Assembly: GCA_000004985.1 (NCBI GenBank)
Contig: GG739032.1
Length of the DNA: 9,800 nucleotides
Strand: one strand, 5' to 3'
Source of the DNA: Naegleria gruberi
Taxonomy: Eukaryota
In this document: in pieces, positions 2,270-9,539 of the stretch
How positions within the stretch are numbered: position 1 is the first letter of the stretch
How the letters are laid out: every line of letters starts with the position of its first letter
Notes under the pieces: model-generated
The model's input: only the letters and a program-made list of their open reading frames with translations
Told to the model about the DNA's origin: nothing
Database searches by the model: none
Made by a program: the position numbers and the translations under genes

Positions 2270-2335
2270 TTGTTACACGCCACAATTTCCGCGTGGCTTT
2301 TACGCCAAAATTTCCACTCCCGAAAATTCTCGCGT
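2270..2335 (+). repeat. Left terminal inverted repeat with subterminal direct repeats (AATTTCCGCGTGG at 2283..2295 and AAATTCTCGCGTGG at 2322..2335).
   Basis: Aligned by eye to the reverse complement of 3828..3899. 13/13 match at the tip. Roughly 36 of the first 45 positions match, allowing one indel. Confidence 0.6.
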
Positions 2336-2663
2336 GGTTTACAAACGCAGAAATGACCTTAATAGGACATTAATACAAGTTGTAATTAAGCTTAATAAAT
2401 TGAAGGGCATCCAACCACTGATGAGTTTAATATATTGTATATTGAACATTATTCTCCTATTACAAAACCAAAGAGTTGAAAAAATATAATCTCTACTTTG
2501 ATGATTTTTATCATGAGGAAGATATCTTGTTCCGAGAAATTAATACCACTCATTAATCATTACCTTTAAGCAAAGAGAGTGTAATTTCCTGTGAAAATAA
2601 TATTAACTCTTGTATTTATTAAATACAGTATTACACCTTGTAGTATTGTTAATACTTTAATAC

Positions 2664-2695
2664 GGAGAAAATCTCCTTAAAATGAGATTTTCTCC
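2664..2695. repeat. Perfect 12-bp-stem hairpin: GGAGAAAATCTC, then CTTAAAAT, then GAGATTTTCTCC.
   Basis: Arm 2664..2675 is the exact reverse complement of arm 2684..2695, with an 8-nt loop. Lies inside the TIR element. Confidence 0.7.
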
Positions 2696-2913
2696 TAAGG
2701 TCCAAATAAGGGTTGGATTCACACTACCTTAACCGAAAAGACATCATCTACTAATTTTATTATTTAAACTATGAATGGTGGAATGTGAGCAAAGCAATTA
2801 ATATAGATTGAAATAAACGCACCAAGAATAAAACAAATTGAAAATTTATTGAAAATTGTTTTGAATCAAGGTTGAAAATCAGCAAGATTTCCGACCATGA
2901 AATTTACCATGTT

Positions 2914-3780
2914 GGAAAATTCACTGTTTGTGAATTTTATTGATGGTGCGATGATGATGACCTTAAATATATTTTCCTTAATGATCGGAAGTGAACTTGT
3001 TGATGATATTGATGATAAAAGATATGATGAAGTGAAAATTCCACAACTCGATGAATACTAAGTGGAAAAATTCCAACTCTCTTGATGGTGATATTAGACA
3101 TCCCTACTAATGATACTATGTTGTTGAAATTCAATCGTCATGATGAAAATATATGGTGAATGATGAATACACCACCAACAAGGTGAAAACTCCAAATATC
3201 CAAAAACTATTATTCGGAGTGTTGTTGAAGATATATTTGAATAGTACTATTCGAAGAAAGTTTGGAAGATGATGAAGTACATGTTGAGTTGTGGCATATG
3301 TATATTTTCAAAATATACATGATTGATGAAATGAGAAGATGAATTCCTGCTATTGATATTGGTGATACTATAGAGTATTGCCAACAATCCCTAATTGAAG
3401 AAATTCCTAGTGAACAAGTAAATCTCCTGATGAGGATGATATTATGAGAAATTTGTAATTTCACCCTATTACAACTACTAAGGGAGATTTCAATTGCTCA
3501 AATTACTAGTAATATAATAATAAATATACTGCGATGATGAATTTCAGCTTAATGATGATGTTTGGAAGTTTGAAAATTCCGATGATAGAAAATATTCCGA
3601 GAAGAAGAACTACCATAAAATATTGCTATAATTACTATTGGTGAGATGTAGCCCAGCTACTATAATTGAAATATTCCAATATGATGATGATTTGATTGAA
3701 TTAAATACCAATGATGATGAGTGGAGGTATTTTTTAAAAGTAATGAGAGAGGACATTCAAAACAAATTAGGATTCCGAAA
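2914..3780. repeat. Degenerate array of units carrying (G)AAAATTCC-like and GATGATGA-like cores. Either decayed tandem repeats or a decayed coding region.
   Basis: AAAATTCC-like cores at about 2916, 3036, 3068, 3127, 3185, 3344, 3401, 3571, 3591, 3671, 3771. GATGATGA and variants occur at least 12 times in 2940..3720. All frames are interrupted by stops. Confidence 0.5.
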
Positions 3781-3827
3781 TGGAGAGTTTAATTTCCTTA
3801 TTGGATTTTCTAATAAGGGTTCGAAAA

Positions 3828-3899
3828 AGTGGCGTGGCTTAATAACGCCAAGAATTTTTTGGCGTGGATTTTCACGCGAGAAATTCTGGCGTGTAACAA
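3828..3899 (-). repeat. Right terminal inverted repeat (GTGGCGTGGCTT ... TTGGCGTGGATTTTCACGCGAGAAATTCTGGCGTGTAACAA).
   Basis: Reverse complement matches the left end. Internal GGCGTGG / CACGCG sub-repeats mirror those of the left end. Confidence 0.6.
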
Positions 3900-4039
3900 T
3901 TATTATCATATTGAATTCAATTCTAAAACAATAAAATTGATACCAGATGTATATCAGTGTGACTAAATGTATCTGGTAAAGTTACATGATGTTTGGATAT
4001 ACTTTCATTGAGACAGTGTGTACAATTGGATATCTGTTG

Positions 4040-4159
4040 AAAAGTTCACGCCGCTTTTTTGCAATGCTTCCTCAAACAATAGAATGCTCCCTTTTCCCGC
4101 CAATAAAAACCGTTTGGATTGTAAAAATGATAAAATTCTGTTCACTGTGAACGTGTAAC
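4040..4159 (-). repeat. Third, degenerate copy of the TIR-end sequence, in the same orientation as the right TIR. It lies immediately upstream of the transposase ATG.
   Basis: 4132..4159 AAAATTCTG-TTCACTGTGAA-CGTGTAAC matches right-TIR tip AAATTCTGGCGTGTAAC, except for an 11-bp insertion that creates the palindrome GTTCACTGTGAAC. Upstream, AAAAGTTCACGCCGCTTTT (4041..) and CTTTTCCCGCCAATAAAAACC (4091..) resemble the subterminal blocks AAAAGTGGCGTGGCTT and GCTTTTACGCCAAAATTTCC. Confidence 0.4.
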
Positions 4160-4177
4160 TTCTATTCAAATATTCGT

Positions 4178-5761
4178 ATGGATGAACGGTTAGAATTAAT
4201 CAAAATGAAAAGAAAGAACGGAGACGCCTCCAGCACTAACAAAAAACAAGCTACACTCGATGGCTTTGTTACCTCCAATCAACAAAATAGCCAAGATCAG
4301 CAATCAAGCCAACTCAGTCCATCCAACGGCCAAAACCTAACACCTAAATACTCTGCTAAGCAGTTGGATGATGAAACTGATTGGATAGCATCTTTATTCA
4401 ATTTTAACAAAGAAGGATTTGAAAAGGTTTCTTCCAACATTGTGTATCCTAAAATTACCGAAACTCCTACCACTCCTAAAACCATTCTGAGAAATGTAAC
4501 TTGCACTGAGGTCAGCCTTGAACTTCTAATTTCAAACATGATTCCAAACCACTTTTGGCAAATACTATTGGACATATTAAACACTAACTTGACCAGAGAG
4601 AGTACAACTGGAAAAGCATCTTCACACTCAAAGTATTACAATGATATTGATATCTCTCAGCTTTTCTCTTTTTTGGGAACTGTAATTAGCTTAGAAAACA
4701 ACCATTCAAAGTTGAATGCCAATGCCAAAACCAATTTACAACAGCTTCGTGCAGAAAAGTTGGATAGCATGATTCCTGGTTATAGAAGATACTTTTCTTT
4801 GATGAAATGTTTTGCTCCTTCTGACCAACAATTTGAATTGATTTCAACAGCATTAAACGATATCACTTTAAATGCTGTTACAATTGGTTCCAATTTTGTT
4901 GTGGACGAAACAGTGTATGCATATCAGATTTCCTCAATCGTTAAAGCAGAGGCTGAACTCTTGCAATGTCCAATTCCAGTAGTGTACATTCCAAGAAAAC
5001 CATATCCAAATGGACTTATGTCGTATAAGTTGTGTGTACTATTTCCTGGATGTAGGAAACCTTATGTTTTAGCCATCCTTCCTCAATACAAAGTTCCTAT
5101 GGATTCCCCTCAGGAAGCAATGTTAAAATTGTTGAAAATGGTTCGTGAATGTACTGATCAAAACTTGCATATTACTGGTGATGCTGCATTTGGTTCATTC
5201 ACTATCTTTGATGAGCTAATCAAATTGAATGTTGTTGGCACTTTCTCTATTTCAGGTACTGAAAAGTCATGGATCTGGGATTTGTTGAAGAGAACACTCA
5301 CTCATGGTAATTGGAAGGCTGCTGAATTTATTTCAAAATCTGTGATCGCTTCTATGCAAAGAAATCCTCAATACCAATCAGACAGAGACAAGAAATATCA
5401 CCATCTTGTTTCGAATGCATTTGATTTTGAAACCTCACCAATTTCACTGCCAACCATTTCAGCAAACTCTTGCAAATATTCTACCTCCTTTTTGCAGAAA
5501 AATACGGTGGAAAAATTGAAAGAAATTGGAAAGAAGGAACATATCAAATTAAGTAAGCTCACTAAGGATGAAATCATCCAGAAGATTCAATTTATTTGCA
5601 ACTCCACAAATGTCAAATCACTTCAACTACATGCTTTGCATTCGTTTGATCAGAATCAATTTAACGCTACCTCTGCTATCCATCATGACCATTATAGACG
5701 TACTTTTAATCTTGTCGACATTCAAGATAAGTACCATTATAAGGCTAGATATGCCTATATC
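4178..5761 (+). CDS. piggyBac-family (DDE_Tnp_1_7-like) transposase. N-terminal 528 aa with intact DDD catalytic triad. C-terminus lies in the gap.
   Basis: Uninterrupted 528 codons. Blocks align to T. ni piggyBac transposase as I recall it. LFSFLGTVI matches IYAFFGILV. YRRYFSLMKCF matches DRFDFLIRCL. VVDET (D243, nt 4904..4906) matches TIDEQ (D268). VYIPRKPYPNGLMSYKLCV matches VYIPNKPSKYGIKILMMCD. ITGDAAFGS...VVGTFS (D335, nt 5180..5182) matches ITCDNWFTS...IVGTVR (D346). YRRTFNLVDIQD (D514, nt 5717..5719) matches YNQTKGGVDTLDQ (D447). Confidence 0.8.
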
Positions 5762-8176
5762 NNNNNNNNNNNNNNNNNNNNNNNNNNNNNNNNNNNNNNN
5801 NNNNNNNNNNNNNNNNNNNNNNNNNNNNNNNNNNNNNNNNNNNNNNNNNNNNNNNNNNNNNNNNNNNNNNNNNNNNNNNNNNNNNNNNNNNNNNNNNNNN
5901 NNNNNNNNNNNNNNNNNNNNNNNNNNNNNNNNNNNNNNNNNNNNNNNNNNNNNNNNNNNNNNNNNNNNNNNNNNNNNNNNNNNNNNNNNNNNNNNNNNNN
6001 NNNNNNNNNNNNNNNNNNNNNNNNNNNNNNNNNNNNNNNNNNNNNNNNNNNNNNNNNNNNNNNNNNNNNNNNNNNNNNNNNNNNNNNNNNNNNNNNNNNN
6101 NNNNNNNNNNNNNNNNNNNNNNNNNNNNNNNNNNNNNNNNNNNNNNNNNNNNNNNNNNNNNNNNNNNNNNNNNNNNNNNNNNNNNNNNNNNNNNNNNNNN
6201 NNNNNNNNNNNNNNNNNNNNNNNNNNNNNNNNNNNNNNNNNNNNNNNNNNNNNNNNNNNNNNNNNNNNNNNNNNNNNNNNNNNNNNNNNNNNNNNNNNNN
6301 NNNNNNNNNNNNNNNNNNNNNNNNNNNNNNNNNNNNNNNNNNNNNNNNNNNNNNNNNNNNNNNNNNNNNNNNNNNNNNNNNNNNNNNNNNNNNNNNNNNN
6401 NNNNNNNNNNNNNNNNNNNNNNNNNNNNNNNNNNNNNNNNNNNNNNNNNNNNNNNNNNNNNNNNNNNNNNNNNNNNNNNNNNNNNNNNNNNNNNNNNNNN
6501 NNNNNNNNNNNNNNNNNNNNNNNNNNNNNNNNNNNNNNNNNNNNNNNNNNNNNNNNNNNNNNNNNNNNNNNNNNNNNNNNNNNNNNNNNNNNNNNNNNNN
6601 NNNNNNNNNNNNNNNNNNNNNNNNNNNNNNNNNNNNNNNNNNNNNNNNNNNNNNNNNNNNNNNNNNNNNNNNNNNNNNNNNNNNNNNNNNNNNNNNNNNN
6701 NNNNNNNNNNNNNNNNNNNNNNNNNNNNNNNNNNNNNNNNNNNNNNNNNNNNNNNNNNNNNNNNNNNNNNNNNNNNNNNNNNNNNNNNNNNNNNNNNNNN
6801 NNNNNNNNNNNNNNNNNNNNNNNNNNNNNNNNNNNNNNNNNNNNNNNNNNNNNNNNNNNNNNNNNNNNNNNNNNNNNNNNNNNNNNNNNNNNNNNNNNNN
6901 NNNNNNNNNNNNNNNNNNNNNNNNNNNNNNNNNNNNNNNNNNNNNNNNNNNNNNNNNNNNNNNNNNNNNNNNNNNNNNNNNNNNNNNNNNNNNNNNNNNN
7001 NNNNNNNNNNNNNNNNNNNNNNNNNNNNNNNNNNNNNNNNNNNNNNNNNNNNNNNNNNNNNNNNNNNNNNNNNNNNNNNNNNNNNNNNNNNNNNNNNNNN
7101 NNNNNNNNNNNNNNNNNNNNNNNNNNNNNNNNNNNNNNNNNNNNNNNNNNNNNNNNNNNNNNNNNNNNNNNNNNNNNNNNNNNNNNNNNNNNNNNNNNNN
7201 NNNNNNNNNNNNNNNNNNNNNNNNNNNNNNNNNNNNNNNNNNNNNNNNNNNNNNNNNNNNNNNNNNNNNNNNNNNNNNNNNNNNNNNNNNNNNNNNNNNN
7301 NNNNNNNNNNNNNNNNNNNNNNNNNNNNNNNNNNNNNNNNNNNNNNNNNNNNNNNNNNNNNNNNNNNNNNNNNNNNNNNNNNNNNNNNNNNNNNNNNNNN
7401 NNNNNNNNNNNNNNNNNNNNNNNNNNNNNNNNNNNNNNNNNNNNNNNNNNNNNNNNNNNNNNNNNNNNNNNNNNNNNNNNNNNNNNNNNNNNNNNNNNNN
7501 NNNNNNNNNNNNNNNNNNNNNNNNNNNNNNNNNNNNNNNNNNNNNNNNNNNNNNNNNNNNNNNNNNNNNNNNNNNNNNNNNNNNNNNNNNNNNNNNNNNN
7601 NNNNNNNNNNNNNNNNNNNNNNNNNNNNNNNNNNNNNNNNNNNNNNNNNNNNNNNNNNNNNNNNNNNNNNNNNNNNNNNNNNNNNNNNNNNNNNNNNNNN
7701 NNNNNNNNNNNNNNNNNNNNNNNNNNNNNNNNNNNNNNNNNNNNNNNNNNNNNNNNNNNNNNNNNNNNNNNNNNNNNNNNNNNNNNNNNNNNNNNNNNNN
7801 NNNNNNNNNNNNNNNNNNNNNNNNNNNNNNNNNNNNNNNNNNNNNNNNNNNNNNNNNNNNNNNNNNNNNNNNNNNNNNNNNNNNNNNNNNNNNNNNNNNN
7901 NNNNNNNNNNNNNNNNNNNNNNNNNNNNNNNNNNNNNNNNNNNNNNNNNNNNNNNNNNNNNNNNNNNNNNNNNNNNNNNNNNNNNNNNNNNNNNNNNNNN
8001 NNNNNNNNNNNNNNNNNNNNNNNNNNNNNNNNNNNNNNNNNNNNNNNNNNNNNNNNNNNNNNNNNNNNNNNNNNNNNNNNNNNNNNNNNNNNNNNNNNNN
8101 NNNNNNNNNNNNNNNNNNNNNNNNNNNNNNNNNNNNNNNNNNNNNNNNNNNNNNNNNNNNNNNNNNNNNNNNNNNN
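5762..8176. other. Assembly gap (2415 N)
   Basis: Run of n characters. ORF-track entries 4178..8179, 5568..8951 and 5745..8216(-) are translations of N and are artifacts apart from their real flanks. Confidence 0.99.
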
Positions 8177-8177
8177 T

Positions 8178-8951
8178 AGATTCGTTGGAGAAGATCACAT
8201 GAAATTTGAAACTCACTTTTTAACTATATTATCAAATAAGAATTATAGATATTATTACAATAATATGAGAGCTCAATTTGAGAATAACAACATTACAATC
8301 CAAGGTGGAATGAAAAATTCTGGAAAGAGACAATTATTTACTTTTATTTCATCAAGTACTACTCTTAATCATATTGCAACATTTGACACAAACACTGTCT
8401 TGGTTTCTGAACGGTCTATAATGGAGAGAAAACAACAAGATGTCTCCATTTCCACATTTAAAAAGGAATCTATTAATTCTAACTTGATTTCCTTCTCGTT
8501 TGTTGATATATCAACAGTTAACAATCAATCAATTTCCTATACATTCCATTTAAATTCAACAAGAAAGTTAAATACCTTAAGAGAATATTCATGTATTGTT
8601 GTGAAGAATTATACCCAAATTCTTAGACAGAATGATTGTTCTCTATCTATTGATGGCCACTTATTAACATGTAAATGTACTTCCATTCAAAATAATTCTC
8701 AAATTGCCATTCTTACTACTGAATATTCAGAAGATACAACTCAATCGTTAACTACTCAATCAAGTAACAACTTGCTTTACCTTCTATTCCTGTTATTGTT
8801 GATCATATTAATAGGTATTGCAATAGTTGGGGTTGTTGTGGTTCCTGTTATCATTGTGTTGGTCAAGAGAAAACAAAAGAAACCAAAAGAAGTTGTAAAC
8901 TCTGTTGAACTACCAACAGCAGTTCATAATTTGTGGCTAGAAACAAAATAG
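8178..8951 (+). CDS. Partial (5' end in gap) type I membrane glycoprotein, paralogous to the 1..1692 protein. Four-Cys module (about nt 8583..8720). TM (about nt 8772..8864). 28-aa Lys-rich tail.
   Basis: Frame open from the gap edge to TAG at 8949..8951. Contains EYSCIVV...C...TCKC...IAIL, then a 31-residue hydrophobic stretch LLYLLFLLLLIILIGIAIVGVVVVPVIIVLV, then KRKQKKPKE. Same Cys spacing and same Cys-to-TM distance as the ORF at 1..1692. The first in-frame ATG after the gap (8199) gives no signal peptide, so the true start is probably inside the gap. Confidence 0.55.
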   Translation, partial: RFVGEDHMKFETHFLTILSNKNYRYYYNNMRAQFENNNITIQGGMKNSGKRQLFTFISSSTTLNHIATFDTNTVLVSERSIMERKQQDVSISTFKKESINSNLISFSFVDISTVNNQSISYTFHLNSTRKLNTLREYSCIVVKNYTQILRQNDCSLSIDGHLLTCKCTSIQNNSQIAILTTEYSEDTTQSLTTQSSNNLLYLLFLLLLIILIGIAIVGVVVVPVIIVLVKRKQKKPKEVVNSVELPTAVHNLWLETK

Positions 8952-9080: not shown

Positions 9081-9539
9081 ATGCAATTATTCGTCAAGAC
9101 ACTTACTGGAAAAACCATCACATTGGAAGTTGAATCAAATGATTCAATTGAGAATGTTAAAAGAAAAGTTCAAGATAAGGAAGGTATTCCACCAGAACAA
9201 CAAAGACTCATCTATGCTGGTAAACAATTGGAAGATGGCAGAACGATCAATGATTACAATATTCAAAAAGACTCTACTCTTCACTTGGTATTGAGATTGA
9301 GAGGTGGTATGCAACTCTTTGTTAAAACCCTAACTGGAAAGACAATTACAATTGAAATGGAATCAAATGATACTATTCAAAATATGAAACAAAAGATCTT
9401 TGATAAGGAAGGTATTCCATCTGATCAACAAAGATTGATTTATGCAGGTAAACAATTAGAAGATGGAAGACAACTCTCCGATTACAATCTTCAAAAGGAT
9501 TCAACAGTTCATTTAGTTTTGAGATTGAGAGGAGGTTAA
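9081..9539 (+). CDS. Polyubiquitin with two head-to-tail ubiquitin repeats (9081..9308 and 9309..9536). Each ends LRLRGG. Stop falls directly after the second GG.
   Basis: Two 76-aa units, [14 protein letters not shown]...[12 protein letters not shown]...[10 protein letters not shown]6, K11, K27, K29, K33, K48, K63, I44, H68, V70 and R72 are present in both. Repeat 1 has about 11 differences from canonical ubiquitin and repeat 2 about 20. The repeats differ from each other at 15 residues and at many synonymous sites. Confidence 0.9.

Follow-up and report, generated by a model that had tools for sequence, protein, structure and literature searches.

This analysis concerns a transposase gene and its surroundings in a window of 9,800 nucleotides that constitutes a complete 9.8-kb scaffold of Naegleria gruberi (contig GG739032.1). 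The stretch from 4034 to 5761, which runs on into an assembly gap, very probably represents an autonomous copy of a cut-and-paste transposon, with the left three quarters visible. The transposon appears to be young and multi-copy, from a divergent piggyBac branch that duplicates a 4-bp ANNT target (mostly ATAT) where it inserts. As judged from sequence comparison, the motif upstream of the gene would be part of the transposon's own left end, and the 1.63-kb element with terminal inverted repeats (TIRs) that lies beside it an independent insertion. The copy itself appears to be an ordinary one and is probably autonomous.

The open reading frame (ORF) at 4178..5761 comprises 528 codons, contains no stop and runs into the N-filled gap at 5762..8176, in agreement with the first-pass annotation of the window. 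The 528 codons are counted from the in-frame ATG at 4178; the likely start is the ATG at 4205. The four aspartates that had been named as catalytic (D243, D335, D514 and D517, numbered from 4178) are encoded exactly where they had been placed, the codons of the last two lying at 5717-5719 and 5726-5728. The parts of the gene that are discussed below are as follows.

4205..5761, plus strand: transposase ORF, 519 of 573 codons visible, start chosen at MKRKN.
4904..4906, plus strand: catalytic D243 (D234 counted from 4205), in VVDETVY, first strand of the RNase H fold.
5180..5182, plus strand: catalytic D335 (D326 counted from 4205), in ITGDAAFGS, just after model strand 321-325.
5483..5599, plus strand: SAP-like helix-extended-helix insert (LQKNTVEKLKEIGKKEHIKLSKLTKDEIIQKIQFI), between the insertion domain and the third aspartate.
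5717..5728, plus strand: third catalytic D514 (D505 counted from 4205) and D517, in FNLVDIQDK, model helix 503-511.

D243 and D335 are invariant in an alignment of seven sequences, and D243, D335 and D514 are each at least 90% conserved in an alignment of 29. The conservation of D517 is lower, and the residue is asparagine in the homologue P0002.

The piggyBac assignment is based on the family profile and the fold and not on the Pfam score of a single protein. The Pfam family DDE_Tnp_1_7 (PF13843) is matched by 21 of the 29 aligned family members (best E = 2e-14), and precomputed matches to it exist for P0002, P0003, P0007 and P0020. An AlphaFold2 model built from the 29-member alignment is confident (predicted local distance difference test, pLDDT, 81.8; predicted template-modelling score, pTM, 0.75). 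A fold search with this model returned the piggyBac transposase fold, with its RNase H core, insertion domain and flanking DNA-binding helices. In the model, the three aspartates fall on strand 1, directly behind strand 4 and on the catalytic helix. It took the fold search to show the relationship, since a profile search of the sequences of solved structures recovered the SAP domain of Ku70 and not piggyBac. The family is large: a profile search of public genomes and metagenomes gave 1,773 representative clusters at E <= 1e-3, of which at least 236 (clustered at the 50% identity level) reach E <= 1e-30.

The match to Ku70 (1jjr; E = 1e-8 with the family profile) identifies the insert that precedes the third aspartate, and its helices fall at residues 427-465 of the model. 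Pfam SAP is matched by 13 of the 29 family members; the window protein itself reaches no Pfam SAP score. The C-terminal end was supplied by P0103, the product of a third N. gruberi copy, which adds 54 residues without a single cysteine, and no cysteine cluster is present at the C-terminal end of the full-length homologues. The C-terminal cysteine-rich domain that had been expected within the gap is thus absent from this lineage.

The ends of the element were solved in copies of relatives from other assemblies, and not in N. gruberi itself. All eight complete insertions, which come from five lineages, have the architecture [ANNT]CTNT...ANAG[ANNT], and TTAA occurs in none of them. The target duplications are listed by insertion.

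L001, L013 and L020: ATAT.
L004 and L005: ATTT.
L006: AGAT.
L022: AAGT.
L009: ATAT / ATTT (one mismatch).

The TIRs around P0002 (L001) and P0013 (L020) were obtained by gapped alignment of the upstream sequence with the reverse-complemented downstream sequence; a generic repeat finder had missed the gapped TIR around P0002, which gapped local alignment recovered. A pattern scan contributed L009 and L013, the informative members of 13 mostly short loci from a metagenome scan. An all-against-all blastn comparison of the loci was dominated by low-complexity matches. The simplest reading of these ends is a 4-bp ANNT duplication. The leaders of the relatives measure 114-173 bp.

Recent transposition is evident for the homologue of the P0020 cluster, which five contigs of a single long-read assembly carry. 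Four of the copies are full-length and align over exactly 2,195 bp at 98.1-99.6% identity; the similarity breaks off sharply at the edges, and the flanking sequences are unrelated. The fifth copy is 5'-truncated, and the identity range becomes 93-99.6% when it is counted. Copies of this 2,195-bp relative (L004 4199-6531 and L022 7571-7912) adjoin reverse-transcriptase and RNase H fragments in a eukaryotic genome, which marks these regions as rich in transposons, and long low-complexity repeats are present in the flanks as well. The 36%-identical relative P0002 was found at the same locus, with near-identical flanks, in L001, L002 and L003, which are independent samples (JGI, ENA and Logan). 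It keeps its TIRs and an ATAT/ATAT duplication, and may represent a fixed insertion in one repeatedly sampled organism.

The same architecture was located in the window, where it can be read directly on the left and by way of a close relative on the right.

4030..4033, plus strand: left copy of the 4-bp target-site duplication, ATAT, in the flank form of the eight complete insertions of relatives.
4034..4073, plus strand: left TIR, CTGTTGAAAAGTTCACGCCGCTTTTTTGCAATGCTTCCTC, which pairs with the right end of L024 at 29 of 40 positions.
4034..4204, plus strand: 5' terminal region and leader, 171 bp.
5762..8176, no strand: assembly gap, which conceals about 531 bp of the element; by comparison with L024 and P0103 these would consist of the 54 codons still missing from the ORF, some 366 bp of non-coding sequence 3' of it and the right TIR ...CCACAG, with ATAT and host DNA after.

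At the left junction ATAT is followed from 4034 by CTGTTGAAAAG (in a longer reading, CTGTTGAAAAGTTCACGCC), 171 bp upstream of the ATG at 4205 and within the distance expected from the relatives. The earlier statement that no TTAA or CCC...GGG end is visible upstream holds; the element begins with CTGTTG, preceded by ATAT. The right end was taken from the metagenome contig L024, which is 97.0% identical in DNA sequence to 4724-5761, with two indels. L024 runs 531 bp beyond the gap edge and terminates in ...GGGAAAAACATTTCCACAG followed by ATAT. The two TIRs are represented by CTGTTGAAAAG and CTGTGGAAATG, and the element ends are CTGTTG...CCACAG. The reverse complement of the right end of L024 (CTGTGGAAATGTTTTTCCCGCTTTTTTCTAGTGCTCCCTC) matches 4034-4073 at 29 of 40 positions, and the local alignment score of 72 compares with a shuffle mean of 49.2 (standard deviation 7.1) and was equalled in six of 1000 shuffles. 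The tip is common to the window, L009 and L001. The exact pattern ATATCTGTYGAA, taken from L001, occurs in the window once, at the left end, and arises in 18 of 3000 shuffles. The upstream similarity between the window and L001, which alone has p ~0.012, is accounted for by the end rule. Joining 4034-5761 of the window to 1021-1551 of L024 gives a rebuilt element of 2,259 bp with imperfect TIRs of 40 bp. It consists of a 171-bp leader, 1,722 bp for the 573 codons and the stop, and roughly 366 bp 3' of these.

The leader carries the hexamer GTTCAC at 4044 (plus), 4140 (plus) and 4147 (minus). The repetition of this TIR hexamer at 4140 and its inversion at 4147 create the palindrome GTTCAC-T-GTGAAC (GTTCACTGTGAAC) at 4140-4152, a feature that the first-pass annotation had rightly noticed; CGTGTAAC follows at 4152-4159. 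The GTTCAC motifs and the palindrome are best taken as the element's own subterminal motifs, which may serve in transposase binding or as a promoter.

The host sequences beside ATAT resemble one another: the window reads gtaCAATTGG then ATAT (4020-4033), L001 reads atCAATTGGa then ATAT (1490-1503) and L024 reads ATAT then CCGTTGG (1552-1565). Combined, these flanks read as the near-palindrome CAAttGGATATCCgTTG, which may reflect a palindromic target preference or mean that L024 derives from the same locus as the window.

At least three N. gruberi copies lie on separate scaffolds, namely those of the window, of P0001 (395 kb) and of P0103 (1.0 Mb), and their proteins are 97-99% identical. P0001 (NAEGRDRAFT_80349) is 97% identical to the 528-codon product. 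It has an 11-residue insertion (GGTQQDQQNSQ) near its N-terminus, and its C-terminus is the window sequence (5424-5520) read past a 13-nt deletion, which causes a frameshift and a premature stop. Either this copy has decayed or its gene model is an artefact. P0103, which is 99% identical, was the sole addition from a second word-indexed protein search, made with the alignment. The near-identical copies on several scaffolds, together with L024, indicate a young transposon family and not a single conserved host gene.

Several observations weigh against this interpretation. The match of the window protein itself to Pfam DDE_Tnp_1_7 is weak (E = 0.0013; 18.5 bits, under the cut-off of 22.4), and it is the relatives that match this family. 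The right end of the window copy is hidden by the gap and is taken from L024, a metagenome contig that is 97% identical. The sequence ascribed here to a 4-bp duplication would look identical if 2 bp were duplicated, the element tips were T...A and the target preference were A..T. The number of N. gruberi copies is a lower bound from protein matches. Lastly, an 8-mer of the neighbouring 1.63-kb element (GTTACACG) recurs in the leader, as does CACGCC at 4047, which is a mild coincidence.

The neighbouring element is the subject of the alternative that survives best.

2270..3899, no strand: neighbouring non-coding 1.63-kb TIR element (TTGTTACACGCC...GGCGTGTAACAA), which ends 134 bp before the left end of the transposon.

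Its existence, as first annotated, was confirmed. The arms are 20 nt long and 95% complementary, with perfect 12-bp tips (TTGTTACACGCC). Several subterminal CACGCC, CGCGTGG and ACGCCAA motifs are present at both ends. The flanks are ACTT and TTAT, which means that an ANNT duplication is absent, and the tips are TT..AA and not CT..AG. A search for target duplications of 2-9 bp gave nothing convincing beyond TT/TT, and neither tblastn nor a profile search detected a transposase remnant within the element.

The first-pass annotation had read 4040..4159 as a degenerate end of this neighbour, in right-end orientation and foreign to the transposase gene. With the left end at 4034 preceded by ATAT, the region 4040-4159 falls wholly within the transposon's own left TIR and subterminal region, and the similarity to the neighbour is at the level of shuffled sequence. 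In a Smith-Waterman comparison of either 1.63-kb end with 3900-4177, the score was equalled by 545 of 1000 dinucleotide shuffles (147 of 1000 with lenient gaps). The numbers of 6-, 7- and 8-mers shared with 4034-4204 were equalled by 782, 826 and 660 of 2000 shuffles, respectively. The similarity claimed for 4040..4159, for which a shuffled-sequence test had been named beforehand, thus does not exceed chance.

A functional link between the two elements would nevertheless exist if the 1.63-kb element were a deletion derivative, or a partner resembling a miniature inverted-repeat transposable element, that is mobilised by this transposase through the short motifs as binding sites. One unusual word is consistent with such a partnership: with 0.06 expected, the window has three occurrences of the exact 8-mer GTTACACG, the last of them at 4152-4159. 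In addition, the hexamers CACGCC (five in the window) and CGCCAA (four) are confined to 4034-4204 and the ends of the 1.63-kb element, and the tips TTGTT and CTGTT are one base apart. The unbiased similarity tests, however, gave no excess, and CACGCC in the left TIR is replaced by TTCCCGC in the right TIR, so that the motif is not conserved between them. The TIRs themselves also differ (CTGTTGAAAAG and CTGTGGAAATG in the transposon, TTGTTACACGCC in its neighbour), as do the tips, and the 1.63-kb element has neither a duplicated ANNT nor a trace of the transposase gene. We consider the partnership improbable. The 1.63-kb element is apparently an unrelated, non-autonomous element of another family that inserted independently. 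Among the three readings offered earlier, the one with adjacent, unrelated elements fits best, with the amendment that the upstream motif belongs to the transposon itself. From the reading that paired the two elements, a piggyBac lineage with non-canonical ends stands and the relation to the TTGTTACACGCC element falls away.

The remaining earlier reading, in which a captured TIR fragment was recruited as a promoter or regulatory element for a domesticated piggyBac-derived gene, is far less probable still. The frame is indeed open over 519-528 codons, there is a palindrome some 55 bp in front of the ATG and the homologue P0002 occupies one locus in three independent samples. Against this, the at least three N. 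gruberi copies are 97-99% identical, two of them with a frameshift or truncation, and the element brings 40-bp TIRs of its own together with a target duplication; even P0002 is bounded by TIRs and ATAT/ATAT, and the relatives display very recent transposition. Domesticated piggyBac-derived genes such as PGBD1-5 and the ciliate PiggyMac share the piggyBac-type catalytic domain with intact aspartates. They are, however, single-copy genes without TIRs, whereas the Naegleria element is multi-copy and has both TIRs and target duplications. The first-pass annotation had proposed a DDD transposase of piggyBac type that is recently active or domesticated. The former fits: the gene is intact over its readable length and the activity is recent.

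The transposon, taken as a member of the piggyBac superfamily, departs from the known members in several respects. A review that covered 157 piggyBac-like elements describes TTAA targeting and precise excision as common to the superfamily in general and puts the rare deviating duplications down to mutation of single copies (PMC5381638). Piggybac-like elements are also reported to begin with C (PMC5381638). The first tip base is likewise C in all of the lineages examined here, but the tips are CTNT...ANAG and not CCC...GGG. Trichoplusia ni piggyBac and Myotis piggyBat (PF13843) duplicate TTAA, whereas the duplication here is ANNT, mostly ATAT, in eight of eight insertions. The TIRs are about 40 bp long compared with 12-19 bp in piggyBac, and the sequence identity to piggyBac is about 15%. 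The C-terminal cysteine-rich domain of piggyBac is missing from the Naegleria lineage, and the SAP-like, putatively DNA-binding motif is inserted before the third aspartate.

Two of these traits recall Sola2, and an assignment of the element to that superfamily in place of piggyBac was weighed. In dictyostelids the target duplications of Sola2 follow the pattern AWWT, as in ATAT, AAAT and ATTT (PMC3627910), and the Sola2 elements DFa-2 and PPa-1 share with the present family AT-rich 4-bp duplications, a SAP-like motif and amoeboid protist hosts. The AWWT pattern fits ATAT and ATTT but not AGAT and AAGT. Alignment of the family profile with the DFa-2 transposase by hhalign was limited to the 37 columns of the SAP-like motif, with a probability of 5.5%; in DFa-2 this motif spans residues 590-626 (PMC3627910, supplement 3). 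The catalytic core has no detectable similarity to that of Sola2, the fold search points to piggyBac, the DFa/PPa tips are GA...TC as opposed to CT...AG here, and Sola2 elements, which carry further genes, are far larger. Sola transposases are also reported to resemble no Pfam family, whereas PF13843 and piggyBac correspond one to one (PMC5751038). Membership in Sola2 is very unlikely and was rejected, as both the transposase and the termini are unlike despite the AWWT-type duplications. The presence of a SAP-like motif in Sola2 and in a piggyBac-type family could represent convergence or a deep relationship. Bacterial IS4/IS1380/Tn5-type elements were also rejected; the NCBIfam matches were weak and isolated (one member each to IS1634, IS4 and IS1380), and the Naegleria element differs in its eukaryotic host and gene structure and in a fold far nearer to piggyBac.

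By analogy with piggyBac, multimers of the transposase would bind the inverted repeats and subterminal motifs, the bound transposase would excise the element and a 4-nt staggered cut would be made at an A-N-N-T target. Many of the ANNT targets (ATTT, AGAT and AAGT) are non-palindromic, so that simple re-ligation after excision would not always be seamless. For the window, the outcome is mainly a clean-up, comprising a chimeric gene model (see below), a motif that belongs to the element's own end and a neighbour that is apparently unrelated. The interest that remains is moderate and lies in the clade, with its piggyBac fold, SAP-like insert, lack of a cysteine-rich domain and consistent ANNT duplications. 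There is about as much to be said for as against the proposal that these elements form a widespread, uncharacterized clade of the piggyBac superfamily, with the SAP-like motif in place of the cysteine-rich domain and integration at A-N-N-T instead of TTAA. If it is correct, TTAA specificity and obligatory seamless excision are not universal in the superfamily, and natural enzymes with the piggyBac fold exist that use another target site. piggyBac is a major genome-engineering tool for which TTAA targeting and footprint-free excision are taken as defining, and if borne out experimentally the branch would offer a naturally occurring test of target recognition by piggyBac-type enzymes. Our literature search did not find the SAP insert or the non-TTAA target described, and Repbase or Dfam entries may already list the clade. 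That the genus Naegleria holds piggyBac-type repeats has been noted before: RepeatModeler classified 29 repeats of N. lovaniensis as `PiggyBac' (PMC6125883).

Three host genes flank the two mobile elements.

16-1692: 558-aa membrane protein.
8178-8951: tail of another membrane protein.
9081-9539: di-ubiquitin.

Paralogy between the two membrane proteins is not significant (E = 0.33). A second N. gruberi entry (EFC46164.1), from a scaffold of 537 kb, has the identical di-ubiquitin sequence, and a partner of more than 90% identity was not found for the 558-aa membrane protein. The di-ubiquitin twin on the 537-kb scaffold, taken with a 558-aa neighbour that has no partner, indicates that a duplicated haplotype of that region does not by itself account for the scaffold of the window.

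The public gene model NAEGRDRAFT_76570 (P0154; 721 aa) maps to the window and begins with MKRKN at the ATG at 4205. The model is a chimera, in which the transposase, as far as ...VDIQDKY, is fused across the N gap to the unrelated C-terminal part of the membrane protein at 8178-8951.

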